Shown: positions 25,370-56,235 of the stretch, in pieces
How positions within the stretch are numbered: position 1 is the stretch's first letter
How the letters are laid out: every line of letters begins with the position of its first letter
Virus record (IMG/VR): IMGVR_UViG_3300050505_000421
Span: 26,579-90,578 of that record
Length of the DNA stretch: 64,000 bases
From: a virus
Strand: one strand, 5' to 3'
The notes under the pieces: generated by a model
What the model was told of the DNA's origin: nothing
The model's input: only the letters and a program-made list of their open reading frames with translations
Databases searched by the model: none
Program-made: the position numbers and the translations under genes

Positions 25370-25410
25370 CGAACACAAGGAAGAAAGACACCACTTCTTC
25401 CTTGTGTTTG
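25370..25410. repeat. element B (25370-25386) then A (25394-25410), inverted pair
   Basis: CGAACACAAGGAAGAAA-GACACCA-CTTCTTCCTTGTGTTTG between stop 25367 and portal. Confidence 0.95.
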
Positions 25411-25434
25411 AGTCCCGGGCTACAATGACGGGCG

Positions 25435-27192
25435 ATGCCAATCAAGAGCACTAAGGTTCGCATGGGGAATCGTACCGCCTTCGTCAAGGCGCACATCATT
25501 GCGCGGGCGGAGCCCTCGGCCCAGGTTCCGGACAAGCAGCACGAGGGGCTTCCTTGGCTGGAGCCGCCGTTCGATCCTTCGTCGCTCGCTAAGACGTACG
25601 AGAACTCCTCTCTGCTGCGGCCGAACATCAGCGCCTACACGACGAACATCCACTCGCTCGGGCATCGTTTCGAGCCTGTGATTGATCTGAACGCACCTGA
25701 CGCGGAGACGCTCGTCGCGGATGCGTTGTTCCTCGATCGCGTCACCGAGGCGGAGGATGCGGGGACCGACCCGAAGTTGGTGCAGGATCCAACACCGGAG
25801 GAAGTGAAGACGCGGCTCGAGGAACTGAAGCGCGCTGCGCGAGTCGAGCTCAGCAGGCTCAAGTTGTTCTTTGACTACTGTTGCCCTGGCACCACGTTCA
25901 CACGCTTCCGGCGAGAGCACAGCGAGACACAAGAGGTTCTCGGCAACTCGTATTGGGAGGTCATTCGGTCCAAGGACGGTAAGCCCGCGCGCTTCGTATT
26001 GGCGCCTGGCGTTTGGATGCGCGCAACTAAACAGGACGGCGAGTACACGCCCGTCGATGTAGAGATTGCTGTCTCGCCGTTCCGTACCAAGAAGGTGGAG
26101 CAACATCTTCTCTTCCGGCGATACATGCAGCTTGACGACATGACCGCGCAGCCTGTGGTGTGGTTCAAGGAGTTCGGGGATCCGCGTGTCATCTCGCGCA
26201 GCACGGGCGAAGTCTACACAGATGAAGTGGCGATGCGGGAGAAGGAGTCGAACGCCAAGCCCGCGACGGAGATCTTGCACTTCAAGATCCACTCCGTGCG
26301 TGACAGTGCGTACGGTATCCCGCGCTTCGCGGCGGCGATGCCTGCGGTTCTCGGCTCGCGCGAGAACGAAGAGGTCAACCTCGCCTACTTCGAGAACAAG
26401 AGCGTGCCTCCCCTTGCGTTGCTCGTGAATGGTGGGCGCTTGGGCAAGAGCGCGATGACCAAGCTCGAGGACTTCTTCGAAGAGAACCTCAAGGGCAAGA
26501 AGAACTTCCATCGCATCCTCATCTTGGAGGCGGAGCCGTCGAAGGGTCTCGGTAACGGGCCGTCCGCTGTCCCGAAGATTGCGTTCGAGCGCCTGCGTGA
26601 TCAACAGCAGCAGGACGCGCTATTTCAGGTCTACGATGAGCGGAACGAGACCAAGGTTGGGTCGCAGTATCGCATGCCCCGGATCCTGCGTGGCGATGAT
26701 CGCAACATCAATCGTTCGACAGTGTTCGGGTCTATCCGTCTTGCCGAGGATCAGGTTTTCGAGCCTGAGCGGAATGACTTCGACGCTGTCATCAACGTGA
26801 AGTTGCTCAGCGCGCTCGGTGTGCGCTTCTGGCGCTTCCGTTCGAACGCGCCGGTCACACGCGATCCGGAGATTCTTGGCGCGATCGTATCCGACATGGT
26901 GCGCTTCGGAATTCTCACGCCGGCGGAGGCGCGCGAACTGGCGAAGGACATCTTCTCGAAGGACTTTGCGACCATCGACGCGCAGTGGATGCACCAACCG
27001 TTGATGCTCACGCTGGCCTTGGTCAAGAACGGCATGGCACCCGAGGCTGTGTTGGGCGCTTCCAGCACGAAGGACGCGCTTGCGGCTCGTGCGCAGGAGC
27101 AGGCACCAGCGCCGACGGCCGGGAACGGCGCGAACGGTGCCGTCGTACCTGCGCCTGCCAACGCACCGAAAATTCAAGAAGGAGAGGCTTGA
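25435..27192 (+). CDS. portal protein (PBSX/XkdE-type)
   Basis: GNSYWEVIR, YGIPR..A...EEVNLAYFEN..VP..ALLVNGG, ILTPAEARE. Confidence 0.88.
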   Translation: MPIKSTKVRMGNRTAFVKAHIIARAEPSAQVPDKQHEGLPWLEPPFDPSSLAKTYENSSLLRPNISAYTTNIHSLGHRFEPVIDLNAPDAETLVADALFLDRVTEAEDAGTDPKLVQDPTPEEVKTRLEELKRAARVELSRLKLFFDYCCPGTTFTRFRREHSETQEVLGNSYWEVIRSKDGKPARFVLAPGVWMRATKQDGEYTPVDVEIAVSPFRTKKVEQHLLFRRYMQLDDMTAQPVVWFKEFGDPRVISRSTGEVYTDEVAMREKESNAKPATEILHFKIHSVRDSAYGIPRFAAAMPAVLGSRENEEVNLAYFENKSVPPLALLVNGGRLGKSAMTKLEDFFEENLKGKKNFHRILILEAEPSKGLGNGPSAVPKIAFERLRDQQQQDALFQVYDERNETKVGSQYRMPRILRGDDRNINRSTVFGSIRLAEDQVFEPERNDFDAVINVKLLSALGVRFWRFRSNAPVTRDPEILGAIVSDMVRFGILTPAEARELAKDIFSKDFATIDAQWMHQPLMLTLALVKNGMAPEAVLGASSTKDALAARAQEQAPAPTAGNGANGAVVPAPANAPKIQEGEA

Positions 27193-27569
27193 TGGCGGAC
27201 TTCGGCGCTTTCGCCCAACTGATCACGAATCCAGACGACCTGAAGCGCGTGGCGATTCACGCGGAGCGTGTGCTGTGGCAGTCGTTCTTGGTGGATCGGC
27301 AACGCGAGACAGGGAAGCCTTTTGCGTGGCCGCCGTCGGAAAGGGCCATCGACTACCGCTTTCAGATCTACGCGAAGTGGTTCCGCATCTTCTACGGCGA
27401 CCTCAAGTACGTCTTGCAGAAGACGCTGGACTTGCTGCCTTGGGTCCTGCGGCGAGAGATCGACGGTCTTCCGATCGAGTTGCCCAGCGACGGTGTGTGG
27501 CCCGCGCCGATGGAAGCGGAATTCTTGATGCCCGAGGAACGCCAGGCGGCCAGGATCGTGAAGAAATAG
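27192..27569 (+). CDS. hypothetical protein
   Basis: TGATG overlap, GGAGAGG RBS. Confidence 0.65.
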   Translation: MADFGAFAQLITNPDDLKRVAIHAERVLWQSFLVDRQRETGKPFAWPPSERAIDYRFQIYAKWFRIFYGDLKYVLQKTLDLLPWVLRREIDGLPIELPSDGVWPAPMEAEFLMPEERQAARIVKK

Positions 27570-27574
27570 CCACT

Positions 27575-29152
27575 ATGGCCAATATCAAGGACGTCCTTGA
27601 TCGAGCCCGCTCTGTCCTGAAGGGAATCGGAGTCCCGGAGATCCGTCTGCCTGCGCCTCTCGTCGAGCTCGTGCAGATCGGCAGCGTCACGCACATCATT
27701 CTAGGCGCGCCCCTCGAGGCCGGTGAGTATCGCCTCGTCGACGGCCAAAAAGATCTGCGTGTTGAATTGGAGAAGGGGGAGGAGTGTAGCGCGTCTGGGT
27801 CTGACGCGCGCTACCCGCAACACTACGTCTCGACGGAGCTTCGCAAGAAGTTGTTCCCGCGTGCCGCGAAGGTGTACCTACACAAGGTCGCCGCGATGGA
27901 AGCACCATCTAATGATGGTGGTACCACGCCGGTGCTAAAACCTGTTGGCCCGTGGGGTTCCTTCAACGAATGCGTCCTCGCCATGCAGGGACGAGGATAC
28001 AGCGAGCAGGTTGCGCGACGCATCTGCGGCTCGATGGAAGCGCAGGCCAAGAAGCAGGAAGAGGTCGAGAAGAAGGATCGTGGCGAAGACCCGGGTGTGA
28101 TGGTCGGCTTGTTCCTGCCGGGTGAGGTTGCGAAAGCCCTCGCTGTCGAGGACGGGGAGGCACCAGACGAACTCCACGTCACGATGGCGTACCTCGGGCG
28201 TCAGTCCGAAATTCCAAACCTCGCTGGCATCGACGCAGTCTTGGAGAAGGTGGCGGCGGAAAGCGCTCCCTTGACGGGGGAGCTTTCGGGCAGCGGTCGG
28301 TTCGAGGCCTCTGAGTCGTCCGATGGTAAGGACGTTCTCTTCAAGACGGTCGACGTGCCCGGCCTCGCCGAACTGCGCGTGCGTGTGGTCGAGGCGTTGA
28401 AGAGCGCGGGATACCCTGTCAATGAGAAGCACGGGTTCACGCCTCACGTGACCCTGCGCTACTTGGATCCCACCGAGAGCAACACGCACGCACCGGGCAA
28501 GCACCCCGTCGGCTTCGACGAAATCACCCTTGCCATCGGTACCACGCGGCGCAAGTACAAGCTGCGGGGAATGAAACCTCTTGTACTACCTACTTCCCTT
28601 GTGCTTGACCGAGCGGACAAGCGCACTGTTGAGAAGGTACTCAAGGGCTTCGCGATCAAGTTGCACAAGCTCGAGGCTCCTGCCGAGGAGCGGTATGTAC
28701 TTGGTGTTGTGCTCGAACCGGACGTAATCGATGCAACGCGAGTGCGGGAGCACGTAGTAGATGGAGAGGTTGTTCCCGCCAGCATCGGAGATACGTACAG
28801 TGAAGAGGAAGTGCGCAAGGCGTGTCACTTCTGGATGGAGAACTACGCGCAGATCGGATTGCAACACACGCGCGTGATCGGTGGTGTGCCGCAGCGTTAC
28901 TCGCTCGCGCCATCGCAGGTACGAATCCTCGAGTGTTTCCTCGCACCGATCGACTTCGAGCTCAATGGCGAGATGGTCAAGAAGGGAACGTGGCTTCTTG
29001 CTGTGCGTGTGATCGATGATGCGTTGTGGGAAGCTGTCAAGCGCGGTGAGTTGACAGGTTTCTCTATCGGCGCTGAATCCTTCTGGGAGTTGCTTTCGGC
29101 TGCGGAATCTGCCAATCTTCCTGTTGCGGGTGCTCAAACAAGTGCAAACTGA
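27575..29152 (+). CDS. XkdF-type prohead protease fused to 2H phosphoesterase domain
   Basis: LHVT (28175) and PHVT (28445) 2H motifs; C-terminal VLGVVLEPD..GD.YS.EEV...KKGTWL...KRGELTGFSIG. Confidence 0.8.
   Translation: MANIKDVLDRARSVLKGIGVPEIRLPAPLVELVQIGSVTHIILGAPLEAGEYRLVDGQKDLRVELEKGEECSASGSDARYPQHYVSTELRKKLFPRAAKVYLHKVAAMEAPSNDGGTTPVLKPVGPWGSFNECVLAMQGRGYSEQVARRICGSMEAQAKKQEEVEKKDRGEDPGVMVGLFLPGEVAKALAVEDGEAPDELHVTMAYLGRQSEIPNLAGIDAVLEKVAAESAPLTGELSGSGRFEASESSDGKDVLFKTVDVPGLAELRVRVVEALKSAGYPVNEKHGFTPHVTLRYLDPTESNTHAPGKHPVGFDEITLAIGTTRRKYKLRGMKPLVLPTSLVLDRADKRTVEKVLKGFAIKLHKLEAPAEERYVLGVVLEPDVIDATRVREHVVDGEVVPASIGDTYSEEEVRKACHFWMENYAQIGLQHTRVIGGVPQRYSLAPSQVRILECFLAPIDFELNGEMVKKGTWLLAVRVIDDALWEAVKRGELTGFSIGAESFWELLSAAESANLPVAGAQTSAN
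28590..28607 (+). repeat. degenerate element A inside CDS
   Basis: CTACTTCCCTTGTGCTTG (1 mismatch plus 1-nt insertion) in the linker between 2H and protease domains. Confidence 0.6.
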
Positions 29153-29167
29153 TCCAGGTTATTGACA

Positions 29168-30871
29168 ATGAGCACAAAACAAGGCAATGTTCGGCGGTTG
29201 AAGGGAATCGAGCCGGAGGAAGTTTCGATGGTCGATCGCCCGGCGAACAAAAGGAAGTTCCTGGTCTTCAAGCGGGCCGATGGAACAGAACAGCGGGTGG
29301 AACTGATGAGCACGGATACGAAGCTCACGCTCAACAAGGAAACCAAGCAGTCGGTCCTCGCTGCACTCGCGTCGCCGCTCGATCTCCTGACCACGCTCGT
29401 CGCCAAGGTCGAGACCGCGCTCGAGACGGACGAGCTTCTTGCTCTTCCGGAGTCGCTCGTCACGGACGCGCTTGGCATCGGGCAGGCTGTCGTGGCCACG
29501 GTCGCGCCGAGTCTGCAGCACGAGGTCGAGGCGGCGCAGCAAGCGATCGAACTGGCGAAGTCCGCTGGCACGGGCGCGACGATCATGAAGAACGTGATCG
29601 AGGCTGCGAACGCCGCCGCTGCAAAGCTTGAGGAGCCGACTGGCAAGCTGAATGCCGAGACGCTTGCGGTGGTCAAGCGGATTCACGCGGGTCTCTCGGT
29701 CCTCAAGGCGCGCTTCCCCGTCTCGCTTACGAAGAGCGAGGACGACCTTCCGGCGCCGGCGCTTGCGCTGCCGTCGGATCTCGGTAAGGCGAGTGGCGTT
29801 GCGGCGCGGGTGCTCCGTGAGGTCGCGGACACAGGCGCGGCTGTGCTGAAGGCGATGGAAGCGCTCGAGTCGGGCACGCTCTTGAAGGCGGGTCCGGTTC
29901 GTGCGATCGTTCGCATGTCGGACAGCGCGCAGGCGCTCGAAGAGAAGTTCCCGGCCGAAGCCGCCGCCGACGTTGCGGTGTCCGTGTCGAAGGCGCGCCT
30001 AGTCGAGCTCGCGAAGGGCATGGCCTCGCCGGCTGACGTTGCGATGGCGCTCGCTGGTGTGATCAAGGAACTGCCCGGCACGCCGCAGGACATCATGGAT
30101 GCCGTCGGCGCGCTCTGCGAGATGATCGCGCCGTACTGCAACGGCGGTGCGGCTGCGGGTGGCAGCGCGGATCAGGTCGCGATGTCCGAGAAGGCCGATG
30201 TAGCGAAGGCCGAGTGGGACACCGCGTACATCAACGACCTCCCGGACTCGGCCTTCCTCTACATCGAGGCGGGTGGTTCGAAGGACGCGGACGGCAAGAC
30301 GGAGCCGCGCAGTCTGCGGCACTTCCCGGTTCGTGACGCCAGCGGTGCCGTTGACGAGGCGCATGCGCGTGATGCGATCGGCCGCATTCCGCAGAGCGAC
30401 GCGCCGGGTCTCGATGATGCGAAGAAGGCGTCTCTGCAGGACGAGGCACGCAAGCTCATGGAGAGTGTGAAGAAGACCGAGGTCGTCGAGACGACCAAGA
30501 CGGAACCCGCGCCTGCGGCGTCCGAGACTGCGACACCGCCCGCTGCCGTGTCGACGGAGATCACAGTGACACCGACCCCGAATCCGGAGCTCGAGAAGGC
30601 GATCGCGGAACTGAACAAGGCCACCGAGATCATCAAGAAGCTCGAGGGTGAGCAGAAGACGGTCATCACGAAGCACGAGGGCGAGGTCGCTACACTGAAG
30701 GCGGACATCGCGAAGCTGCAGAAGTCGACCGAGGCCCCGGCCTCGCGGCCGACAGAGGGCAGCCCGGCGCGTGTGAACAAGACGGGCAACGGGGTTCCGA
30801 TCTACCCGAACGATTACAACGATCCGGAGTACAAGGCTGCGGTGGCGAAGGCCGGCGGCCTTGTGTACTAG
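29168..30871 (+). CDS. capsid scaffold protein with inserted domain
   Basis: EVSMVDRPANKRKF N-terminus typical of XkdF-linked scaffolds; coiled-coil C-terminus; upstream of capsid. Confidence 0.7.
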   Translation: MSTKQGNVRRLKGIEPEEVSMVDRPANKRKFLVFKRADGTEQRVELMSTDTKLTLNKETKQSVLAALASPLDLLTTLVAKVETALETDELLALPESLVTDALGIGQAVVATVAPSLQHEVEAAQQAIELAKSAGTGATIMKNVIEAANAAAAKLEEPTGKLNAETLAVVKRIHAGLSVLKARFPVSLTKSEDDLPAPALALPSDLGKASGVAARVLREVADTGAAVLKAMEALESGTLLKAGPVRAIVRMSDSAQALEEKFPAEAAADVAVSVSKARLVELAKGMASPADVAMALAGVIKELPGTPQDIMDAVGALCEMIAPYCNGGAAAGGSADQVAMSEKADVAKAEWDTAYINDLPDSAFLYIEAGGSKDADGKTEPRSLRHFPVRDASGAVDEAHARDAIGRIPQSDAPGLDDAKKASLQDEARKLMESVKKTEVVETTKTEPAPAASETATPPAAVSTEITVTPTPNPELEKAIAELNKATEIIKKLEGEQKTVITKHEGEVATLKADIAKLQKSTEAPASRPTEGSPARVNKTGNGVPIYPNDYNDPEYKAAVAKAGGLVY

Positions 30872-30922
30872 AGGCGGCGCAAGCTAGGTCACTGAACGAA
30901 AGATAACGAGGAGACAGACATC

Positions 30923-31867
30923 ATGGCGGTTACCGAAGGCAAGACGCTCCTGCAGAAGGCTGACCTGGCACTCGCCGACATCCTGACGGGAGGCCGGCTT
31001 GCGCCGGAGCAGTTCGATCGTTACGTCCAGCTGAACATCAAGGAGGGCACCCTCCTGAAGGACGTCACGGTCGTGGGCATGGACAACGACCGGCAAGAGA
31101 TCTCGAAGATGCGCTTCTCGGGTCAGGTGTTGCAGCCTGGCACCGAGGCGTCGGCGCTTCCGGTGGGTCTCCGGTCGAAGCCCTCGCTGGCGAACGTCAC
31201 CCTCACGGCGCAGCTGCTCCGTGCCGAGGTGCGTATGAGTCAGGAGGTCGCGGAGGACCAGATCGAGCGCGGCACGTTCGCGCAGTCGGTCATGGGTGCC
31301 TTCGTGAAGGCCATCAACCGCGACCTTGAGAAGCTCCTCATTCAGGGTGACACCCTGTCTGCGGATGTGCTCCTGGCTGTGCTGGACGGTCTGATCAAGC
31401 AGGCCACGAGCAACGTCGTGGCCGGCGGCAGCGTCACGCTCAGCAAGGAGATCCTCCGGGACATGTGGAAGCTGATGCCCGACGAGTTCGCGACTCCGGG
31501 CAACGTCTTCTACACGAACCGGCAGGCGGTCGTGGCCTACAAGGACTCGATCTCGAACAAGGCGACAGGCCTTGGCGACATGCAGACCGTTGCGGGTTGG
31601 CCCGCCGGCGAGTTCATGTGGTCGGATCTGAAGGGCAAGGCGAATCCGCTCTTCCCGAACAACCTCGGTGGTTCGACGAACGAGACGGTCGTGCTCCTGA
31701 CGGACCCGAAGGAGAACATCCACGTCGGGTTCCACCGCAAGGTGAAGCTGCAGACCGTGGAGGTCCCGCAGGAAGGCGTGCTGCTCATCGTCGGCTCGAT
31801 GCGCGTCGATGTGAAGTACGTCGAAGAGACGGCCGTGGTGAAGGCGACCGCGATCAAGGGCGTGTAG
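30923..31867 (+). CDS. major capsid protein (HK97 fold, XkdG/P2-like)
   Basis: GGRLAPEQFDRY, size 314 aa, strong codon bias, GAGGAG RBS. Confidence 0.85.
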   Translation: MAVTEGKTLLQKADLALADILTGGRLAPEQFDRYVQLNIKEGTLLKDVTVVGMDNDRQEISKMRFSGQVLQPGTEASALPVGLRSKPSLANVTLTAQLLRAEVRMSQEVAEDQIERGTFAQSVMGAFVKAINRDLEKLLIQGDTLSADVLLAVLDGLIKQATSNVVAGGSVTLSKEILRDMWKLMPDEFATPGNVFYTNRQAVVAYKDSISNKATGLGDMQTVAGWPAGEFMWSDLKGKANPLFPNNLGGSTNETVVLLTDPKENIHVGFHRKVKLQTVEVPQEGVLLIVGSMRVDVKYVEETAVVKATAIKGV

Positions 31868-31936
31868 TAGGCGGCGTCAGCCGGAAACAACTGGTTCGGT
31901 TTGGGCGGCGACGCCCCATAAGGAAGGCAGAAGACC

Positions 31937-32272
31937 ATGGCAGCCAACGCATTCGTTCTCGTTTCGAACACGATCGCCGGCGACCAGACCTCGGCGCCCG
32001 CTTTCGTGCGTATGGTGAAGCTGACGGCGCCCGATGCGTACTCCGCGGGCGGCACGCCGTTCGACTGGACAACGTACCTCCCGAAGGGCGCGGCCCTCAT
32101 GGGTATTCACGTGCGTGACGTGACTCGTGCGACGGGCGTGCCTTCGACGCACGTCTGGGAGTACGACATCACGAACAAGAAGCTCATCGCGTACGTGCGG
32201 ACGACGGGCGTCGAGAACGCGACGGCGGACATCTCGGCGGAGGACGTCTACGTCACGCTCTTCGGCGTGTAG
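31937..32272 (+). CDS. virion structural/head decoration protein
   Basis: YSAGGTPF motif, position after capsid. Confidence 0.6.
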   Translation: MAANAFVLVSNTIAGDQTSAPAFVRMVKLTAPDAYSAGGTPFDWTTYLPKGAALMGIHVRDVTRATGVPSTHVWEYDITNKKLIAYVRTTGVENATADISAEDVYVTLFGV

Positions 32273-32300
32273 TTCGAGCCGTTGATCAAGGAGACCCGAA

Positions 32301-32705
32301 ATGGCATCTGCAATCACTACAACGTTCGGCTCCGGTGGCGCGAACCTGACCCCTTCGGCTGCGGGCACACCCACCCTAGCCGGCGCTCTTCGTGACATCG
32401 CCGACGACATCGCCGACGTCAACGCAGGACCTGTCCCTGCTTGGGTGGCGGGTGTCACTGTCACGACGAACGTGGCGGTGCGTGTGGCCGCGAGTTGGAT
32501 CATCTCGGTGCACGTGACAGCGGGCGGCGTGACCGGCATCATCAACATCATCTCGACGGGTACGCCTGCGACGAAGCAGTGCACGGTGACCTACGCGGCT
32601 GGGGTGGCGACACTCACCTTCGCGGCCGGCGACGCGGTCACGGCGATCTCGATCCTCGAGATTCCGAAGGTGGCAGGCCTGTCGGCGCGTCTCACCAAGG
32701 CCTAG
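32301..32705 (+). CDS. virion structural protein
   Basis: Ala/Thr/Gly/Val-rich; head module. Confidence 0.6.
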   Translation: MASAITTTFGSGGANLTPSAAGTPTLAGALRDIADDIADVNAGPVPAWVAGVTVTTNVAVRVAASWIISVHVTAGGVTGIINIISTGTPATKQCTVTYAAGVATLTFAAGDAVTAISILEIPKVAGLSARLTKA

Positions 32706-32751
32706 CATTCTGCTGGAGTCGTAGTAGACTCCAAGTTCAACAAGGAGGACC

Positions 32752-33285
32752 ATGTCCGATTTCCTGTGGGCTCGTCTCAAGCCGAAGAACATCAAGGCCG
32801 GTCATCTGATCGAGCGGCTCTACTTCAAGGACGTCCTCTACCGCGGTGGCGATCGCCCCGACTGGTACAAGGTACGCCCAGAGCTCGCCGCCGACCTTCG
32901 GAAGGTCAAGCAGGAGGACACCAATCCTCGCTCGGAACCTGCCTTCGACCTCGTTTCCGATGACGAGCGGAAGCGCATCGACCACGTGGAGAACTCGCGG
33001 CGTATGGCCATGCTCGGCCTAGTCGCGGCGCATCACCAAGAGTCGGTGAGTACACCTCTTCGGGAGGTGGATCTCACAGAGTCGAGTGCCACACCGGTCG
33101 CTCCGATTGCGCATGCGGCCCCCGCGGCGCCTGCGAAGGCGCCCGAAGCCTTCTCTGCGGAGACTGCGCCCCCGATCGACAGCGAGGCCGGTGAGGGTCG
33201 CGCTTCGGCCATCCCGCCCGCGCAGGGCGCGCTGACGACAGACGACATCCCGAGGGGTGGGCGACGCGGGCGCTCGTCGCGGTAG
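32752..33285 (+). CDS. hypothetical head-module protein
   Basis: AAGGAGG RBS. Confidence 0.7.
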   Translation: MSDFLWARLKPKNIKAGHLIERLYFKDVLYRGGDRPDWYKVRPELAADLRKVKQEDTNPRSEPAFDLVSDDERKRIDHVENSRRMAMLGLVAAHHQESVSTPLREVDLTESSATPVAPIAHAAPAAPAKAPEAFSAETAPPIDSEAGEGRASAIPPAQGALTTDDIPRGGRRGRSSR

Positions 33286-33289
33286 CGCC

Positions 33290-33613
33290 GTGGCCCTGCC
33301 GCTTCCGACCGGCACCGCGCGTCCTGCGAACGGTGCACAGCTAGACCGCGCCGGAAACTACAAGCAAGAAGGGCAGCACGTTACAGTCGCGGACTATGAC
33401 TTCGCGGCCTTTCTGTTGATGAAGGGCGTCCCTCTCGTCGAAGCAACGAAGCTGTCCGAACACACGCACAGCTTTGTCTTCCTCGATCAAACAATGGAGG
33501 GCAAGAGCACTGTTGCAACGTTGGCGATCACATTCGCGAACTCAGAATCCGCTCGCTTTGCGGAAGCCATTCGCCGCCTGAAGAAAACGATCTACTCGCG
33601 ACGCCCCCGATAA
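33290..33613 (+). CDS. DUF5659-like protein
   Basis: DYDFAAFLLMKGVPL...FVF; start uncertain. Confidence 0.5.
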   Translation: MALPLPTGTARPANGAQLDRAGNYKQEGQHVTVADYDFAAFLLMKGVPLVEATKLSEHTHSFVFLDQTMEGKSTVATLAITFANSESARFAEAIRRLKKTIYSRRPR

Positions 33614-33627
33614 GGTAGGCTGGAGCC

Positions 33628-34686: not shown

Positions 34687-34690
34687 GCAC

Positions 34691-34738
34691 CTTTCTCCTT
34701 GTGTTTGGTTGCAGGAATGTCCAAGCACAGGGAAGAAG
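34691..34738. repeat. element A (34691-34707) then B (34722-34738), inverted pair
   Basis: 4 nt after stop 34686; 18-position stem with 3 G:U and 1 mismatch. Confidence 0.92.
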
Positions 34739-34747
34739 TGATAGAAT
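34739..34747 (+). promoter_or_regulatory. putative extended -10 promoter, leaderless
   Basis: TGa-TAGAAT, GTG 34754 follows after 6 nt. Confidence 0.4.
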
Positions 34748-34753
34748 CCGCAG

Positions 34754-37039: not shown

Positions 37040-37082
37040 CCTCTCTTGACTTAGGTACCAGCGCCATGGCAGTATTGCGGTC

Positions 37083-37352: not shown

Positions 37353-37376
37353 GCGGCTGCGTTAGCGAGGACCTTC

Positions 37377-40142: not shown

Positions 40143-40181
40143 TCTTCTTCCTTGTGGTTGGTTGAACCGCAGGAAAGAAGA
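40143..40181. repeat. element A (40144-40160) paired with degenerate B (40165-40181)
   Basis: TCTTCTTCCTTGTGGTT-GGTTG-AACCGCAGGAAAGAAGA, 16/17 pairs incl. 2 G:U and a compensatory G-C. Confidence 0.85.
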
Positions 40182-44582: not shown

Positions 44583-44583
44583 A

Positions 44584-44600
44584 CTTCTTCCTTGTGCTTG
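44584..44600 (+). repeat. 17-bp element A (exact)
   Basis: 1 nt after stop 44582. Confidence 0.95.
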
Positions 44601-44607
44601 GTGACAC

Positions 44608-47149: not shown

Positions 47150-47173
47150 CGCAGGATGCTGTAAGCTTCAGGG

Positions 47174-47190
47174 CAAGCACAAGGAAGAAG
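47174..47190 (-). repeat. 17-bp element B (exact)
   Basis: Directly abuts ATG 47191. Confidence 0.95.
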
Positions 47191-49154: not shown

Positions 49155-49157
49155 GAC

Positions 49158-50111
49158 ATGGCCGAACCAATTGTAAACGCTTCCTTCGAACTGACCGGCG
49201 ACGACGAGGTCCTGCCGACAGGTTGGACTATCGTCATCGTCAACACGTTCGAGGAAGTCGCCATCTTCGGGAATCGGCACGTTGGCTACGACGACTTCGA
49301 GCGGCAGTGGAAGGCACCGAAGACGCCGGCGACGCCGCCGTTCAACGACGCCAGTTTGTTCGAGCTCGAGGCTCCGAACGTTGCCCTCGCGTTGTTCGGC
49401 GGTCTCAAAGAGTTCGACGACTTCGAAGATGGCTGGGACAACGACGCGGGGTTGCTCGACGACTTCAACGCGATCTCGAGTTCGACGGCGGCGTTCGACA
49501 CAGCGCCCGAGAACTTCGAGGACTTCGAAGAGGATTGGAAGGACCCGGCGGCGGGTGGTGCTCCGTTCAACGAGGCAAGCCTGTTCTCCTGGGATGACGT
49601 GACCGAGAGCGCTGCGCTGTTCAACAGTGGGGTTGATGCATTCGAAGCTTTTGAAGAGGGCTGGCGTTCGAACGAGAACTCGCTGTTCACGTTCGCGCCG
49701 ACGGACATCGAGACGACTGGTTGGGGTGCGGCGGTGGCCCTTGCAACCTTCAACATGAACCAGGATCCGGAGGATCGCTTCACCGATGGCGCGGCCTATA
49801 CCCCGCCGGCCTTTGCAAAGGTCGTGGCGATCGACATCACGGTTACCACTGGCGTGTTGGCCGACGCGTGGGACGTGACGTACACGAACGGGGCGGGCAC
49901 CGCGGGGCAGGTTGGAAGTGTCGCCATTCCAGCCACCGCGGTCGTCGGGCGCCGTTTCATTCTGGAATTGGATGTAGCGGGTGAGGGCGTGCGTGATATA
50001 ACGGACGCGGTTTCAACAGGACCTATCGCGCAGCAACTCGGAACGGCTACACTGAACGGATTCTTGAAGGACACAGAGGACTTCGAGGACGCCTGGACGT
50101 CCATGCTGTAA
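49158..50111 (+). CDS. acidic repeat-containing structural protein
   Basis: Five xxFExxW motifs and recurring FNxxSLF. Confidence 0.75.
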   Translation: MAEPIVNASFELTGDDEVLPTGWTIVIVNTFEEVAIFGNRHVGYDDFERQWKAPKTPATPPFNDASLFELEAPNVALALFGGLKEFDDFEDGWDNDAGLLDDFNAISSSTAAFDTAPENFEDFEEDWKDPAAGGAPFNEASLFSWDDVTESAALFNSGVDAFEAFEEGWRSNENSLFTFAPTDIETTGWGAAVALATFNMNQDPEDRFTDGAAYTPPAFAKVVAIDITVTTGVLADAWDVTYTNGAGTAGQVGSVAIPATAVVGRRFILELDVAGEGVRDITDAVSTGPIAQQLGTATLNGFLKDTEDFEDAWTSML

Positions 50112-50126
50112 GACAAGGAGTGCAAG

Positions 50127-50825
50127 ATGGCGGAGATCGACTGGGCAGTGATGGACGACGTTGTTTCGTCGTCCTCGATTCTGAGCGGTGTGACTGCGGG
50201 TGCGACCACACCACCGAACGGGGGTGGAACGTTCTTCTTCGGTTTCAACTCGCTGGTCGCGGACTTGGGCGTCGCGGGGCGCTACGTCGATCTCACGAAC
50301 TTCAACCCGTACGTGAAGGGGATCTCCGTCCGTGCGGCGTTGAAGCGTGGCGTGAGTGCCGGCGTGACTGGGTTCGCTCCAATGCTGTGGGCGGGGATCC
50401 AGTCGAACCCGCCGAGCGTGAACGATCCGGGCTACCTGCTGTTCCTTTCGGACGACGAGCCGCACTCCATCGTATTGAAGAAGGGCGCCCCTTCCGGTGC
50501 GATGGAAGCCGTGGGCTCCGGTGTTCTAGCCGTGTCGTCCGCCACCTACTTGGCGGACACGTGGCTCCACCTCCGGATGGACGTGATCGCCAACCCGAAC
50601 GGAGACGTGGTGATCAATGTCTTTCAATCGGATCTGAACCTGCACGCGGTGACCACACCCACTTGGGACGCCATTCCTGGCATGGCGCAGGTGATCGACG
50701 ACTCCCTGCGTGTGCTTACAGGGTCTGACCCGTTGACCGGCGGCTTCGCAGGCTTTGCCTTTCAATCCGCCGCACTCAACCGACGTAGCTACGTGGACCA
50801 TTTTGCCGTACAACGCCAAATTTGA
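50127..50825 (+). CDS. structural protein (beta-sandwich-like)
   Basis: ACAAGGAG RBS; baseplate region. Confidence 0.7.
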   Translation: MAEIDWAVMDDVVSSSSILSGVTAGATTPPNGGGTFFFGFNSLVADLGVAGRYVDLTNFNPYVKGISVRAALKRGVSAGVTGFAPMLWAGIQSNPPSVNDPGYLLFLSDDEPHSIVLKKGAPSGAMEAVGSGVLAVSSATYLADTWLHLRMDVIANPNGDVVINVFQSDLNLHAVTTPTWDAIPGMAQVIDDSLRVLTGSDPLTGGFAGFAFQSAALNRRSYVDHFAVQRQI

Positions 50826-50828
50826 TGA

Positions 50829-50845
50829 CTTCTTCCTTGTGCTTG
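50829..50845 (+). repeat. 17-bp element A (exact)
   Basis: 3 nt after stop 50825. Confidence 0.95.
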
Positions 50846-50858
50846 ACGGAGGTTGCGC

Positions 50859-50957
50859 GTGGACATTGATGTAGACGAGCTCGACATCGATCTTGGAGAG
50901 GCCCTGCTCGCGGATCTAGAAGTGGATGCGTACGAGTTGGTCTTCGTCGACAGCTAG
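50859..50957 (+). CDS. 32-aa acidic micropeptide
   Basis: GGAGG RBS, MDIDVDELDIDLGEALLADLEVDAYELVFVDS*; fills gap exactly; below ORF-track cutoff. Confidence 0.55.
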   Translation: MDIDVDELDIDLGEALLADLEVDAYELVFVDS

Positions 50958-50965
50958 GAGGCGGC

Positions 50966-51919
50966 ATGGCTTTTCATCACAACCCGAACGTTTCCATCTC
51001 CGGTGCTTCCGATCTCGAGCGCTCGCGCCTGTTCTTGTTCACGCTGAAGACGCTGCTCAAGGCGCACGGCTGGGTGGCGAAGGGCTCGGGAACTGGGAAC
51101 ACCGGCGCATTCGACAACAGCGGTGTCGATCTCTGGGTGACGGCCGCGTCCGTAGTTGGGCAGGGCGCGTGGATTCGCCTGCGGCACTCGATCACCGGTA
51201 CCGAGGCGATTCTCGCGATGCGGAACACAGCGGGCACGGAAGAGGACCTCGGCTTCTTGTGGAGTCGGCAAGCGGGTTTCGGCGGTGGAGCACCTTCCGC
51301 GACGGTCCCGCCCACAGCGACCGACCAAGTGCTGGTAGCTGATCGCGCCGTTTCGGACTGCACGATTCCGACAGCGAACTTCAAGGCGCAATTCATCTGT
51401 GACGATGCGTCGCCGTCATTCATTGCGTACGCGTCGACGGCGGGCCCTGTATTTCGACTGCTGTGCATGTTCGACTGGGCACGGAATGCCGTGGCGGGAG
51501 ACACCTCCCCAGGGGCCGCTTGGTGGATCAGTGGGAGCCCCCTTGAACTCGGTGTGAAACTTGTCGACGGTGCATTTGGTGGAGGGTATGATTCCGACGA
51601 TCTCAGTATCCTTGAACCTTCGGCTGGTAATGGCATGTCCATAACAACCTTCGTTGTTGGTACGCAGGATTTCTTCCAGAACGCACCCACAACGAATCCT
51701 CGAGATGGCAATGCGACCTATGTATCGCCCTTGATCTGCGTCGCACAAGGGGCCCTTGTTGTGGGTCCGCACGTGAAAGGAACAAGTCGGCTCTTGAAGA
51801 TGGTATCTTCTTCGCATGCACTCAACGCCGTACTCAGCAGCAAGCGGTACTGGGTAATAGGAAATACGGACACCAAGTTCTTAGTGCCTGGTGATGGCAC
51901 GAGTACACCGACGGTCTAA
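50966..51919 (+). CDS. structural protein
   Basis: AGGAGG RBS; LKTLLKAHGW..GS pattern seen in virion proteins. Confidence 0.7.
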   Translation: MAFHHNPNVSISGASDLERSRLFLFTLKTLLKAHGWVAKGSGTGNTGAFDNSGVDLWVTAASVVGQGAWIRLRHSITGTEAILAMRNTAGTEEDLGFLWSRQAGFGGGAPSATVPPTATDQVLVADRAVSDCTIPTANFKAQFICDDASPSFIAYASTAGPVFRLLCMFDWARNAVAGDTSPGAAWWISGSPLELGVKLVDGAFGGGYDSDDLSILEPSAGNGMSITTFVVGTQDFFQNAPTTNPRDGNATYVSPLICVAQGALVVGPHVKGTSRLLKMVSSSHALNAVLSSKRYWVIGNTDTKFLVPGDGTSTPTV

Positions 51920-51921
51920 GT

Positions 51922-52665
51922 ATGGCGTCCGCCGAAGGATACGTCTGGGGACCGCTCACCCCGCAAACGCAGGGTAGTCCTTGGACCTACGACCTTGGTG
52001 TTTCACAGGGACGGATCCGTCCGCAGAACTGGACGCCTGTAGACGGTGAGTTCGTGTTCTGTGCGGGCAGTGACTTGGTTCCACCGCCCGTATTTCAACT
52101 GAACTTTGGGGATCAGATCACGCTGGAGCAGAGCATCGATCTCACAGGTCTCGACCTGATCGGTGCGCGTTTGCATATTCGGCAACCGGCCAGTCTACCC
52201 GTGCAACTAGAGCTCCAAGGTGATCCGGAAGACGCACAACTATACAGCTTGGCTTCCACAGAACTGTCTGAGTTTGTCGGTGTGTCTGGCAACGTTGGGA
52301 GTCTGCTTCTCGTGCCAAGCGGCAACCTGACCGACGCAGATCTTGGCGGGACCGTGGAAATCAGTGGTTCCGCCGAACCACCCAACGACGGGCAGGCGAC
52401 GATTTTGGGTGTTCTGTCGCCCTCGTTGGTGGCCTTGGACAAGATCCTACTCGACGAGGGGCCGACTGGTGGTCAACGCGTGACGTTGCTCGGAGGCCGT
52501 TTTCGCACCGCTATCTACCTTGACGACGTGCTGATACAGCAGACCGTAGAATTCCTGGGGCGTGAACGCGATCGGAAGGACTTCAAGCTCCACGTCTCAA
52601 AGCTCGGTGGCATGCACGTGGTTCGCTTTGCCTTCGAGCTTATCGACGAGCGGCAGGTGCCCTGA
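51922..52665 (+). CDS. structural protein
   Basis: Long ORF in baseplate/fibre module. Confidence 0.7.
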   Translation: MASAEGYVWGPLTPQTQGSPWTYDLGVSQGRIRPQNWTPVDGEFVFCAGSDLVPPPVFQLNFGDQITLEQSIDLTGLDLIGARLHIRQPASLPVQLELQGDPEDAQLYSLASTELSEFVGVSGNVGSLLLVPSGNLTDADLGGTVEISGSAEPPNDGQATILGVLSPSLVALDKILLDEGPTGGQRVTLLGGRFRTAIYLDDVLIQQTVEFLGRERDRKDFKLHVSKLGGMHVVRFAFELIDERQVP

Positions 52666-54341
52666 TGTACGTCCCGCTTGGAGCCCTGTACGTCGATCTC
52701 GTCTCGCAGGAGACCAGTTCGACGTTTGCAGGGCTCATCAACCGGGACCCAGAGCCTGATTCGCCATTCGTAGGCGAACGCGGCGCTCCTCGAGACACGC
52801 CGATTCGACTCACGATCGTCGCGTTCGGCGACGGCGAGATCGCCAATTCGCAGGTGTACGCCTCCGTGAACGGTGGGGCTGAGGTTCTTGTCTTTGATCA
52901 GTTCGCGTTGGTTCCGTTCGACGCAGCGTACAGTAGTTCTGAGTTCACACTCAGCTTCTCGCCCGGTTCCTCCGTCGTGGACGAGCACATCTTCAAGCTT
53001 GTCCGCGCCACGCAGTTCAATTCGCAAGACGTCGTCACGGTTCGTGTTGTAGCAGAACTCGTCTCGAGCGATGTGCTCAACACAAGCTACTCCTTCACGA
53101 TCGAGGACCTCACCGCTCCGGTCATCGATGACGTGCGAACGCGCGGCCTGCGCAACGTTCGTGTGCTCTACAACGAGGTTGTGGAGCAGGCTACAGGAAC
53201 ACGCGGCGACGCGCGGCTTCTGCGCCTTCTGACCAATGGAGTGGAGTTCGTCGGCCCGGACCGCCTGCGGACTCCGAACGGGAACTTCACCAGCGCGGAC
53301 CTTGGGCAGTACATCGGATCGGCTCGTTGTGCGAACGCGTTGAACAACGGTTACTTCGAAATCATCACGGTCATCGATTCCCAGAACGTACAACTCGATC
53401 GCCTGATCGAACCGGAGTTCGCCCCCGTCGATTCGATCATCACGCTGTCGCCGTACCGCTTTGTTTACACGGCGCCGACTACAGAGGTTCTGCCCGGTTT
53501 CACACCGATCGTGGTCGAAGCCAACGCGGTGCCCGCAGACGATCTTGCGCCCGGTACGGATCTCGCGCGCTACGTGGACTTGGTGCTGCAAGACGACCTC
53601 AGCCCTGGCCGCACGTACGTCCTTCAGGCGGCTGTCATCAACGATGTGCTTGGTAACACCGGCCTAGATTTGGAGCGGGCCTTCACGGCGGAAACACTGC
53701 CCACTGCACGGCGTCGTCGGTTCGAGTTGTGGGATCTGATCCCACAGAAGAACAAGAACGAGGATGCGACGGCAGAACTCGAGAAGTACATCAAGTGCCT
53801 CGATGAGGTGTACCAACTACAGCGCGCGGAAACAGACGGACTGCTTACGCTGACGGACATCGATCTGATTCCGGCCCCGCTGCTCGACATCTTGTTGGAA
53901 CACTTGGGGAATCCATTCCAGTTCGAGCTCACGGATCTCGAGAAGCGCCGCCTTGCCGACGTGCTGGAGAAGATGTATCAGGCGAAGGGAACAGAGAAGG
54001 GTATGGAAGACGCCCTTCTCTTCTTCCTCGGTATTCCGATGGACGTCCAGCCATTCAACGCAGTGGGCGGCTTCTGGATCTTGGGCGAGTCTTTCCTCGG
54101 GGAAGACACCGTCCTCGCCCCCGGCACTTCGTTCCTGCGCTTCTCGTTCCAGATCGTGTCGCCGGTGGCGTTAACGGATGAGCAGCGCTTCATCGTGGGG
54201 CAGGTGGCCACGTACCTCAAACCTGCGCATGTACATTTCGTTGCCCTGCTGGAACCGAGTGGCGGAGCGCCGCCATCGCCGTTGACTTTCTGGGAGCTCG
54301 GCTCCTCCGCACTGGGTGAGTCCACAGTGCTCGGTAGTTGA
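52665..54341 (+). CDS. baseplate wedge/tail protein I-like with Ig-like N-terminal domains
   Basis: DLIPAPLLDIL.EHLG...KGTEKG..DAL; KPAHVH. Confidence 0.8.
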   Translation: MYVPLGALYVDLVSQETSSTFAGLINRDPEPDSPFVGERGAPRDTPIRLTIVAFGDGEIANSQVYASVNGGAEVLVFDQFALVPFDAAYSSSEFTLSFSPGSSVVDEHIFKLVRATQFNSQDVVTVRVVAELVSSDVLNTSYSFTIEDLTAPVIDDVRTRGLRNVRVLYNEVVEQATGTRGDARLLRLLTNGVEFVGPDRLRTPNGNFTSADLGQYIGSARCANALNNGYFEIITVIDSQNVQLDRLIEPEFAPVDSIITLSPYRFVYTAPTTEVLPGFTPIVVEANAVPADDLAPGTDLARYVDLVLQDDLSPGRTYVLQAAVINDVLGNTGLDLERAFTAETLPTARRRRFELWDLIPQKNKNEDATAELEKYIKCLDEVYQLQRAETDGLLTLTDIDLIPAPLLDILLEHLGNPFQFELTDLEKRRLADVLEKMYQAKGTEKGMEDALLFFLGIPMDVQPFNAVGGFWILGESFLGEDTVLAPGTSFLRFSFQIVSPVALTDEQRFIVGQVATYLKPAHVHFVALLEPSGGAPPSPLTFWELGSSALGESTVLGS

Positions 54342-54343
54342 TC

Positions 54344-54372
54344 TTGTTCTAGCGTCGTTGAACCGGTAGGAT
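54344..54372 (+). promoter_or_regulatory. putative promoter for tail fibre gene
   Basis: TTGTTC-N17-TAGGAT in intergenic gap. Confidence 0.35.
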
Positions 54373-54393
54373 GACAACGCAAGAGGGTGCTAA

Positions 54394-56190
54394 ATGAGCG
54401 ATCGAGTTGACTATTTTTTCGGCCAGCTTGTGACTGAGGCAGAGCTCGACTTCGCACAGTCGCAGCTCGAAGCCGCCGATCGCAACTACGCGCTGGACAC
54501 CGACGCGGCTCTGGTAGACCTCTCGGCCTCCCCGAACATCGACGGCGGCATTCACAAGGCGATGGCCACTTCGTTCGTGGGCTTCACGGTGACCGTGACT
54601 GGTCCTGGTGTGGCCTACGACCACCTTGGTCGGCGCATCCCGCTCGCGGCGAACACGGACGTATCCATCACAGCGACCGGCGAAACGGCGATCGGAGCCG
54701 GTGGAACGCCGACGGGGGGCTCGGCCACGGATCCCGGCGTTGGACTCGAGCGCTGGATCTCCCTCTTCGTTCGATTCGACCGCCTCCTGTCCGACCCGCG
54801 CGTGGACGCGAACAGTGTCCCGATCAACTTCCAGCAGGCAGAGAGCTTCGTCTTCAAGGTCACGATGGGCACGGCGGCGGGGAGTCCGACGAAGCCCCCG
54901 CTCGAGTCCGGCATGCTCCTACTGGCCGACTTCCGCCGGTCGGACGCGGCGATTCTTCAGATGGACCTCACGCGGCGCCACGATTGGCTCGTGCGTGAGG
55001 ACGGTACGACGTACCCCGTTCACACCATGCGGATGGGGAACGCGCGTGCAGCCATTGCGAAGGTGCTCGAGTTGATCGACAAGCACGTCGCAGGGACAGC
55101 GGACCTGCACGCGGCAGCGGCCATCAACTACGCCGGCGGTGGCACCTGGGCAGACGCTACGACCAACCCCGCGACGACGGTCGAAGCGCAACTCGACAAG
55201 GTCATCTCGGATCTCGCTTCGACCGGTGGCAGCGACGGCACCGCGAAGATCGGCGGTAAGGCGACGACGGGCTCATTGAACACAACGACCGGCGCCACCT
55301 CGACGACTGCCACGACGCTGTTCGCACAGATCGGACAACTCTTGGCCGGCATCAACGGCCGCCTACAGCGCGGCGGCGATTCCATGGCCGGCAACATCAC
55401 GACCGACGGTACGACACGGAACCTCGGCGCGACCGGCGCCGCGGGAAACCGCTTCAACATCTTCGGGAACAACCTCAACGTGCTCGCAGTGAGTGCCGAC
55501 ATCCCGACGGACGGAACGGCTCGCGCTCTCGGCGCGACGGGGGCGGCAGGAAACCGCTTCGGTATCTTCGCGAATGCGATCGACGCTGCTGGCGACGTGC
55601 TCCCGGAAGCGGATGGCACACGGAACCTGGGTTCCGGCGCCAAGTCTTGGGCGAACGTGGTCTCGGTCGGCTTCCAGTACGACCCCGTTCTCACCAAGGT
55701 CTGTTCGGTTGGATCCATCAACGGGCGCCCTCAGATCGATGCTGCTGGTGTGAGTGACTGGGTCGCCCCTGCCATTCTCACCACGGATACGACGCGGCAG
55801 CACTGGCGGACAACGTCAGCCCTCGGCGCCGGGACCAAGGGCGGTACGCTGAGCATCCCAATCAGCAGCCTTCCGGACAGCGCTACGATCACCGGCATCA
55901 GCGTCGTTTGGATTGGTCAGGGCGGTGGTTCGCCGGACACCCTGTTCTACGGTGCCTGGCTCGAGGCCAACGGTACGAGCAACACACGGTCCGCGATCGG
56001 GACGGCGAGCTCCACGGCGGGGACTGCGGCCATCGTCTCCACGTCCATCTTCAGCGGATCCGTGTCCTACGACCGCGACGCCGTCTCCATCATCGTAGAT
56101 TTGCAGGTCAGCCAAGCCGGCGCGGGTGCTGCCGACGTACGCGTCTACTGCGTCAACGTCACCTACACCACCGCCTCTCCGCAGGTGTAA
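54394..56190 (+). CDS. baseplate-anchored tail fibre protein
   Basis: DRVDYFFGQLVTEAEL N-terminus; three ~34-aa DGT.RNLG repeats; beta-sandwich C-terminus. Confidence 0.8.
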   Translation: MSDRVDYFFGQLVTEAELDFAQSQLEAADRNYALDTDAALVDLSASPNIDGGIHKAMATSFVGFTVTVTGPGVAYDHLGRRIPLAANTDVSITATGETAIGAGGTPTGGSATDPGVGLERWISLFVRFDRLLSDPRVDANSVPINFQQAESFVFKVTMGTAAGSPTKPPLESGMLLLADFRRSDAAILQMDLTRRHDWLVREDGTTYPVHTMRMGNARAAIAKVLELIDKHVAGTADLHAAAAINYAGGGTWADATTNPATTVEAQLDKVISDLASTGGSDGTAKIGGKATTGSLNTTTGATSTTATTLFAQIGQLLAGINGRLQRGGDSMAGNITTDGTTRNLGATGAAGNRFNIFGNNLNVLAVSADIPTDGTARALGATGAAGNRFGIFANAIDAAGDVLPEADGTRNLGSGAKSWANVVSVGFQYDPVLTKVCSVGSINGRPQIDAAGVSDWVAPAILTTDTTRQHWRTTSALGAGTKGGTLSIPISSLPDSATITGISVVWIGQGGGSPDTLFYGAWLEANGTSNTRSAIGTASSTAGTAAIVSTSIFSGSVSYDRDAVSIIVDLQVSQAGAGAADVRVYCVNVTYTTASPQV

Positions 56191-56194
56191 GGCC

Positions 56195-56235
56195 TTTCTT
56201 CCTTGTGTTTGGGCTAACCAAGCACAAGGAAGAAA
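56195..56235. terminator. motif A/B hairpin between convergent genes; probable bidirectional terminator
   Basis: TTTCTTCCTTGTGTTTGG-GCTAA-CCAAGCACAAGGAAGAAA, 18-bp stem with one G:U; no U tract. Confidence 0.6.

Follow-up and report, generated by a model that had tools for sequence, protein, structure and literature searches.

An uncultured phage with a myovirus-like genome of about 137 kb, represented by the IMG/VR virus record IMGVR_UViG_3300050505_000421 (137,073 base pairs (bp) and about 84% complete, hereafter G000), carries a short asymmetric intergenic element whose placement depends upon the strand that is transcribed. In one orientation the element lies directly before start codons and contains a Shine-Dalgarno (SD) sequence, in the other it lies directly behind stop codons, and where inverted copies adjoin they fold into stable hairpins. 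The element and its rules of placement are kept in one relative (IMGVR_UViG_3300048080_000580, hereafter G004). The stretch under study, referred to as the window, comprises 64,000 nucleotides (nt), bases 26579-90578 of the G000 record, and its numbering is used here unless a genome position is specified. We favour, tentatively and at somewhat less than an even chance, the reading that the element is recognised in the transcript, acting at the RNA level and in connection with translation.

Attention had been drawn to the hairpins by an original prediction, made from the letters of the window, which took a surplus of G:U pairs and one compensatory change within the stems as a sign of selection on RNA pairing. 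The observation behind it is accurate, and an RNA-level function is still the best reading, for other reasons: the better argument is the positional grammar of stops and starts rather than the counting of G:U pairs. Large phage genomes often contain repeated intergenic motifs, and for almost none of them has a function been demonstrated. The element of G000 is an unusually legible case, with one 17-mer, two orientations with different codon anchoring, and hairpins where both meet. If it does act at the RNA level, it would offer a compact means to set expression ratios in long operons without an RNA polymerase or sigma factor of the phage's own; no RNA polymerase was seen among the large open reading frames of G000 that were examined, and no sigma-70 domain, CsrA or RNase III was found encoded in G000.

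Copies, orientation and codon anchoring

The intergenic element is 17-20 nt long and is described here by its two orientations, A (YTTCTTCCTTGTGYTTGG) and the complement of A, termed B. With up to 3 mismatches, TTCTTCCTTGTGTTTG has 23 copies in the window where 0.24 would be expected, and the whole G000 record holds 50 copies of the element. Exact matches to TTCTTCCTTGTGYTTG number 25 in the record, against none for the reversed control. The copies are concentrated between genes, as 40 of the 41 found with up to 2 mismatches are intergenic and the gaps make up only 9.3% of the genome (p = 2e-40). In the transcript a sense-A copy reads UUCUUCCUUGUGYUUGG and a sense-B copy reads CCAARCACAAGGAAGAA.

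Within the gaps between co-directional genes there are 18 A-sense and 21 B-sense copies, and the two orientations are anchored to different codons. Of the 21 sense-B copies, 16 end 1-8 nt short of a start codon, whereas just one of the 18 sense-A copies lies within 10 nt of the next start (Fisher test, p = 1.1e-5). Twelve of the 18 sense-A copies start 1-8 nt behind a stop codon; an upstream stop within 10 nt is found for 12/18 of the A-sense copies against 5/21 of the B-sense copies (Fisher test, p = 0.01). The A copies stay at the stop in long gaps as well (1 versus 41 nt in one gap, 4 versus 120 nt in another). The solo A-sense copies on the plus strand at 44585-44600 and 50830-50845 follow a stop codon by 2 and 4 nt, respectively, and the solo B-sense copy on the minus strand at 47174-47189, where the plus strand reads CAAGCACAAGGAAGAA, stands 1 nt before the ATG of a gene for a gp25-like baseplate wedge protein. 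A separate observation is that two in-frame stop codons stand before several of the A copies (16590-16597, 19983-19991 and 50823-50829), the sequence being TAG TAA C twice and TGA TGA C once.

Sense-B copies contain the SD sequence AAGGAAG together with a CA-rich leader, CAARCACAA. The purine block of the B-sense copies varies toward canonical SD forms (GGAGGAA, GGAGAAA) and CAARCACAA is nearly invariant, while the A-sense copies are at least as conserved as the B-sense copies, over all 17 nt. Solo copies of the asymmetric 17-mer lack an internal dyad, and folding occurs only where inverted copies adjoin. The left arm of G000 holds 7 B copies and 1 A copy. All four tRNA loci of G000, which are on the minus strand and outside the window (tRNA-Gln, tRNA-Leu, tRNA-Ile with an odd tRNA, and tRNA-Thr; sites at genome 4856, 10429, 101724 and 129789; L333, L335 and L336), are followed 2-28 nt downstream by a B-sense copy and then by a gene start, so that tRNA processing would leave B at the new 5' end of the mRNA.

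Inverted pairs and their folds

The four inverted pairs of the original prediction are confirmed, the last of them at 56194-56236. The first occupies 25370-25410 on the plus strand in the order B-loop-A, with arms at 25370-25385 and 25395-25410 and a 9-nt loop. A gene for a 195-amino-acid protein stops 2 nt before the hairpin begins, and the portal gene starts 24 nt beyond its end. The second, at 34691-34738 on the plus strand, has the order A-loop-B, with arms at 34691-34708 and 34721-34738 and a 12-nt loop, and starts 4 nt after the stop of a gene for a head-tail-adaptor-like protein of 352 amino acids; its stem contains 3 G:U pairs and one C.A mismatch. The third, at 40143-40181 on the plus strand, lies between the tail tube and baseplate-hub genes, with an A arm at 40143-40159, a 5-nt loop and a 3' arm at 40165-40181 that has diverged from the consensus (A-loop-B'); it contains 2 G:U pairs and one C.A mismatch. 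The fourth, at 56194-56236, is a 19-bp A-loop-B hairpin, assigned to neither strand, and occupies the convergent junction with which the late operon closes. The stop of a plus-strand gene of the fibre region is 3 nt away on one side and that of a minus-strand gene 2 nt away on the other, each arm being the stop-anchored A copy of its own gene; the stem has one G:U pair and no A.C mismatch on the plus strand.

Six further pairs lie outside this set. One is in the window on the plus strand (16598-16663), with A at 16598-16614, a 32-nt spacer and a degenerate B at 16647-16663, 5 nt before the start of a gene for a 62-amino-acid protein; two are elsewhere in G000 (genome 101702-101741 and 134340-134385), and three are in G004. 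Across the pairs the spacers range from 2 to 32 nt and the arm orders A-loop-B and B-loop-A both occur. Hairpins are found after the tail tube gene and at both of the convergent junctions that have a gap.

That the pairs fold into hairpins is borne out on either strand, with stems of 16-19 bp and about 40% G+C in the four original pairs. Fold energies on the plus and minus strands are -27.7 and -27.0 kcal/mol for the pair at 25370 (z-scores -7.2 and -5.0), -25.3 and -15.0 kcal/mol at 34691 (-3.6 and -1.4), -20.8 and -16.2 kcal/mol at 40143 (-4.1 and -3.0), and -32.1 and -26.4 kcal/mol at 56194 (-8.0 and -5.9). For none of the four did any of 200 shuffles reach the plus-strand energy, and the hairpins themselves exceed chance. 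The sense strand is the more stable strand in 6 of 7 one-directional pairs, which is suggestive only (sign test, p = 0.06). There is no T run after any of the four stems, just as the original prediction had it.

Conservation in a single relative

The sole relative that carries the element is G004, a record of 27.6 kb whose tail sheath is 60% identical to that of G000 in protein. Its copies keep the same grammar, with A placed 3-5 nt after stops and B 3-7 nt before starts. Two hairpins are found at orthologous positions, namely that between the tube and hub genes (G000 40143-40181, G004 22363-22402) and that of the convergent junction at the end of the fibre region (G000 56194-56236, G004 5450-5502). 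Solo copies are kept too: the A copy at 44585 has its ortholog at G004 17936-17951, 3 nt after a stop, and the B copy at 47174 at G004 15337-15352, 3 nt before a start. In the gap orthologous to that of the solo A copy at 50830, G004 has a full A-loop-B hairpin (10882-10934), so that pairs and solos interconvert by insertion and deletion, with arms gained or lost as units. The remainder of each orthologous gap has diverged between the two phages, and the core of the element is kept across about 35% nucleotide divergence. The ends of the consensus are lineage-specific throughout each genome, being TTGGT in G000 and TTGATC in G004.

Gene order also differs at copies of the element. The homologs of the genes at 99.5-101.2 kb of G000 end at the 101702-101741 hairpin in that genome and are inverted and immediately adjacent to the fibre-end hairpin in G004 (L123:2879-5502, compared with window 56194-56829 and genome 99544-101741), where they are followed by a gene whose N-terminus matches window 56239-56829. 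The breakpoints of this rearrangement thus coincide with the element.

Beyond G004 the searches returned little. The motif is absent from IMG/VR relatives with portal or sheath proteins at 38-49% identity; scans of IMG/VR for the exact motif gave only random single matches, the same phage and G004, and a scan of IMG/VR for the paired motif gave G004 alone. Run on the Joint Genome Institute (JGI) metagenomes, the paired scan yielded 69 hairpins, all of them unrelated and without a BLAST match to G000. A megablast of 24 kb against cultured phages found no near DNA match, and a search of 5.8 billion proteins with the sheath returned only G004 (60%) and one 3.7-kb Logan contig (SRR31655986; 52%). 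A more distant relative (IMGVR_UViG_3300048606_000120, L139; sheath 46% identical) is without the element, and in 22 kb it has six copies of a 14-mer of its own, CTCGAGGTTACAAC. It may be typical of this phage group that each lineage has intergenic repeats peculiar to it.

A proposed reading in the transcript, linked to translation

Why should a single sequence be attached to stop codons in one orientation and to start codons in the other? An RNA-level reading is favoured because this anchoring depends on the strand, which a double-stranded DNA site leaves unexplained. The element, its placement, the folds and the conservation in one relative are observed directly; that RNA rather than DNA is the active form, and what the hairpins do, is our inference. 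Sense B would supply the SD sequence and the CAARCACAA leader directly before about 20 start codons, sense A would take its place directly behind stop codons, and where A meets B the mRNA would form a U-less hairpin of 16-19 bp. Such a hairpin would most likely be an intercistronic barrier, whether as a block to 3' exonucleases, as a processing site for a double-strand-specific nuclease, or as a weak or factor-dependent terminator. A barrier of this sort would set unequal expression on its two sides and would halt read-through at convergent junctions, and the locations of the hairpins, after the abundant tube gene and at convergent junctions, suit such a role; the part of the window in which they lie has no surplus of canonical terminators that might do the same work. 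With the order A-loop-B, the outermost pairs of the stem are formed by the SD part (UUCUUCC with GGAAGAA), so that a ribosome terminating a few nt upstream would open exactly that part. The variable loops and the presence of both arm orders also favour hairpins, because a dimeric DNA-binding protein usually needs a fixed spacing.

A promoter function for A was considered and rejected, since there is no conserved -10/-35 hexamer at a fixed distance and B-sense copies would point antisense.

Pairing within the stems

What do the imperfections of the stems reveal about selection on pairing? Ungapped alignment of each 5' arm with its own 3' arm yields the very count of the original prediction, with 1, 3, 2 and 1 G:U pairs on the plus strand of the four hairpins (total 7) against 0, 1, 1 and 0 A.C mismatches (total 2). 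Several imperfections consist of TTTCTCC in one arm facing the complement of TTCTTCC in the other, a swap that necessarily produces one G:U and one A.C on either strand. At the variable position of the 40143 hairpin there is indeed a G in arm A with a matching C in its partner, and as the ortholog in G004 (22363-22402) has C:G, both sides have truly changed. No other copy in the window has this G, but in the genome it recurs at 104714, in a solo copy, and at 134370.

A number of results weigh against the RNA-level reading, and those on pairing come first. The split of 7 to 2 is not significant (one-sided binomial p = 0.09) and fails to replicate, as the six further pairs give, on the sense strand, 4 G:U to 4 A.C among the one-directional pairs and 5 to 5 among all. 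In the pair of genome 134340/134370 the rare G faces a T in the partner arm and so forms an uncompensated mismatch. True partners among the seven G000 pairs share 15.4 of 20 positions as compared with 15.9 for non-partners (re-pairing P = 0.40), and exhaustive re-pairing within each genome, scoring Watson-Crick and sense-strand G:U pairs, gives P = 0.47-0.51 for G000 and 0.83 for G004, so that partners fit each other no better than re-paired arms do and no partner-specific covariation is seen. The placement of some arms is also awkward: in 3 of 4 pairs the B arm is 16-49 nt from the next start, and is thus not acting as the SD of that gene. Whether A and B co-occur within a gap more often than expected depends on the null, with p = 0.03 over 200 gaps and p = 0.60 over the 80 gaps of at least 20 nt. 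The missing U tract makes classical intrinsic termination unlikely. Finally, the idea that a solo A copy masks a local SD was rejected, as the translation-initiation regions downstream of such copies, each taken as the start codon with the stretch immediately before it, show weaker pairing with A than do other initiation regions (-7.7 versus -10.0 kcal/mol).

An apparent excess of covariation was also rejected as evidence. In the seven A-loop-B hairpins of both phages 90.7% of cells are paired, compared with 86.9% in shuffles (5 of 500 shuffles reach the observed value), and 7 cells are doubly changed where shuffles give 3.5. The excess vanishes when shuffling stays within a genome, for it arises because the consensus of the two phages differs (in the ends TTGGT and TTGATC, and in Y, which is fixed as C in G004), and such differences are common to both arms under any model. 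The only partner-specific signal comes from the diverged 3' arm at 40165-40181, which has lost the consensus and kept its pairing with its own A arm, matching 14 of its 20 positions, where the mean for other copies is 11.9 (only 7% of these do as well). There is no microdiversity within the hairpins to draw upon, the four further assemblies of this phage matching G000 at 100% or 99.99% identity.

The pairing of the arms follows from both of them keeping the family consensus. The G:U excess and the single compensatory change do not on their own establish selection on RNA pairing, and this step of the original prediction is not supported. The caution is a wider one: where a shared consensus constrains both arms, as it does between members of a repeat family, a count of their G:U pairs is no test of RNA structure.

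Alternative explanations

The alternative that survives best, although we consider it less likely, is that a phage-encoded, sequence-specific DNA-binding protein recognises the element as double-stranded DNA, with solo copies binding one protomer, pairs binding two and the hairpin arising as a by-product. Such a site fits arms that track the family consensus rather than each other, as well as the equal conservation of A-sense and B-sense copies over 17 nt, and the authors who described the inverted repeats of Cluster K phages discussed below drew the same conclusion for the same reason (PMC3203893). Lineage-specific consensus ends would be expected if a reader protein co-evolves with its site, and two candidate readers are encoded beside copies of the element: a 70-amino-acid stand-alone helix-turn-helix (HTH) protein of the GerE/LuxR type (14848-15060), directly downstream of a solo A copy, and a 233-amino-acid protein with a sub-threshold HTH_17 match (15893-16594), which is followed by the 16598-16663 pair. 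Yet a DNA site gives no reason for A to hug stop codons when there is room elsewhere, nor for orientation to choose the codon. The half-sites would be spaced by anything from 2 to 32 nt, in head-to-head as well as tail-to-tail order, and the pair with the 40165-40181 arm has been retained in spite of the poor match of that arm to the consensus. Promoter-like hexamers at a fixed distance from the element are lacking, and with no integrase found, immunity of the stoperator type is unlikely.

A second possibility, to which we attach a small probability, is that the copies are the boundaries of exchangeable gene modules that are shuffled by homologous recombination, as has been proposed for the stem-loops of T4-type phages, with A/B pairs marking the junction of two modules. 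The order B-[genes]-A, in which 9 of the 10 B copies in the plus-strand block are next followed by an A (p about 0.05), agrees with this, as do the interconversion of pairs and solos by insertion and deletion and the coincidence of G000/G004 breakpoints with the element; the T4-type motifs, moreover, have been described as composite terminator/promoter motifs that are exchange points (PMC4122927). A passive scar, however, leaves the near-perfect conservation of solo copies and the retention of the core at orthologous sites unexplained. Nor was a site-specific recombinase or Y1 transposase found: no tyrosine integrase was detected in G000, the only resolvase match is sub-threshold and inside the DNA polymerase region, and the Y1 transposase family (PF01797) has no match in the 137-kb record, an absence that is not absolute given its completeness of about 84%. 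A recombination-boundary role is compatible with a regulatory function, whether this is read in RNA or in DNA.

A more ambitious version of the RNA-level reading, and again an improbable one, is a genome-wide sense/antisense code, in which the stop-anchored A copies would be anti-ribosome-binding sites. They would pair with the B-type sites of about 20 genes, whether distantly in cis or in trans from one transcript to another. Termination on one gene would then free the ribosome-binding site of another or, alternatively, late transcripts rich in A would silence early messages of the B type. If every A has to match every B, a concerted, lineage-specific consensus would follow, and the adjacent hairpins would be no more than local instances of the network.

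Least probable of all is that the G:U pattern and the compensatory pair reflect chance or a strand-biased C-to-T mutation and that the hairpins add no function beyond that of two copies. In its favour, the 7:2 split is weak and fails to replicate, the chance of a partner also carrying the rare G variant is about 0.07-0.09, A/B co-occurrence equals expectation among gaps of at least 20 nt, and, as the GC skew of the plus strand is positive, C-to-T changes in A arms would turn C:G into U.G. On the other side, two of the pairs persist as such at orthologous sites in G004, B-loop-A pairs break the grammar of the solos and so are not a mere coincidence of solos, and A-sense and B-sense copies show no significant difference in how often they have T or C at the variable position.

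Comparison with known systems

The nearest described system is that of the start-associated sequences (SAS) and extended start-associated sequences (ESAS) of Cluster K mycobacteriophages, and the element is best regarded as a variant of such phage repeats rather than as a repetitive extragenic palindrome (REP), a terminator or a stoperator. The SAS are asymmetric short repeats a few nt upstream of starts that combine an SD core with conserved non-SD flanks, and the ESAS are 17-bp imperfect inverted repeats with a variable spacer in gaps close to starts, the arm departures of which do not support pairing (Pope et al. 2011, PMC3203893); both have been unexplained since 2011. The B-sense copies of G000 are likewise asymmetric and present in many copies, with an SD core and conserved non-SD positions at starts, and the G000 pairs, with arms of 16-19 nt, spacers of 2-32 nt and no partner-specific complementarity, resemble the ESAS. 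In both systems the consensus differs between related lineages. The SAS, however, occur almost exclusively in one orientation, whereas the G000 element uses both (18 A-sense, 21 B-sense), its reverse orientation forming a second, equally conserved, stop-anchored class. In Cluster K the inverted repeat is a separate sequence upstream of the SAS, whereas in G000 it is the start-associated motif itself. G000 also differs in having copies in structural and non-structural modules and in a motif that is different from GGGATAGGAGCCC; nor is there a link to an actinobacteriophage host, the portal sharing no more than about 32% identity with that of any cultured phage and no near DNA match having been found.

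Other intergenic repeats are further removed. A search of Rfam gave no match at the gathering threshold in the 64-kb window. Intrinsic (Rho-independent) terminators consist of a G+C-rich stem-loop with a U run within a few nt, and U-less 'I-shaped' forms have been proposed. The G000 hairpins share with them stability and a position directly after stops, at operon ends and at convergent junctions. They differ in having long stems (16-19 bp) of only about 40% G+C without a T run, so as intrinsic terminators the hairpins fail on the U tract, and a role as the U-less terminators that the original prediction considered is putative. A plus-strand terminator scan picked up none of the four hairpins, and in the region of the window that was scanned canonical terminators were in no excess over shuffles (13 versus 15.2; 9 versus 17.5), nor were sigma-70 promoters in excess.

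In bacterial chromosomes, the unit of REP sequences and of bacterial interspersed mosaic elements (BIMEs) is an imperfect palindrome mobilised by a Y1 transposase of the RAYT family. These elements resemble that of G000 as repeated intergenic sequences with inverted pairs and mRNA hairpins, and REP can stabilise upstream messages. The G000 unit, however, is asymmetric, phage-borne and inclusive of an SD sequence, and with no Y1 transposase found the proposal of REP-like units fails on the features that define them.

Phage T7 has RNase III processing hairpins between its early genes, which are individual structures rather than a genome-wide repeat. Like them, the G000 hairpins are stems between cistrons, about two helical turns long and free of U tracts, and RNase III cleavage leaves a 3' hairpin that stabilises the upstream message; the targets of Escherichia coli RNase III offer a further comparison (PMC6212723). 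At 16-19 bp the stems are slightly short of the 20-22-bp duplex of an RNase III substrate, which spans about two turns and is cut with 2-nt 3' overhangs. They differ from the T7 structures in being built from a genome-wide repeat in a phage in which no RNase III was found, and a processing role is putative.

The PeSL (promoter-early stem-loop) motifs of T4-type phages combine a sigma-70-type early promoter with a terminator stem-loop (PMC2839356, PMC4122927). They too are repeated intergenic motifs with a stem-loop at the indel and rearrangement breakpoints between related phages, although no promoter hexamers accompany the G000 element. With the stoperators of Cluster A mycobacteriophages, which have one orientation relative to transcription and occur in temperate phages with a repressor, and with the 17-bp dyad repeats of Cluster O, about a third of which are inside genes (PMC4351075), the element has in common that a short site recurs many times over a phage genome, in small gaps between genes. 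It departs from the former by occurring in both orientations, with different codon anchoring, in a phage for which no integrase was found, and from the latter in that its copies are almost all intergenic.

Genome context and additional observations

Genes were called on G000 with a codon-usage model, and for the window between 27.5 and 49 kb the calls equal the public calls on identical contigs. The window encodes a portal, a prohead protease fused to a 2H phosphoesterase, a tape-measure protein, a baseplate J protein and a class II ribonucleotide reductase with a probable intein, together with the tail tube, the hub and a major-head-like protein, while a family A DNA polymerase, helicases, terminase and a C5 methylase are encoded outside it. 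A candidate CCHC micro-protein at 16668-16856 has no Pfam match.

Several features of these genes deserve separate mention. The protease at 27575-29152 (Peptidase_S78_2) is fused to a 2H phosphoesterase domain of the 2',5'-RNA-ligase/LigT type. The ribonucleotide reductase gene at 21609-24728 is split by a LAGLIDADG domain that is probably an intein, and a PD-(D/E)XK nuclease elsewhere in G000 (genome 109963-112221, minus strand) also has a LAGLIDADG domain. Finally, a second repeat, CTCGCCTGTTCTAGGC, followed by a G+C-rich hairpin, is found on the minus strand in two gaps of the left arm (L333:10601 and L333:14702), one of which adjoins tRNA-Leu.

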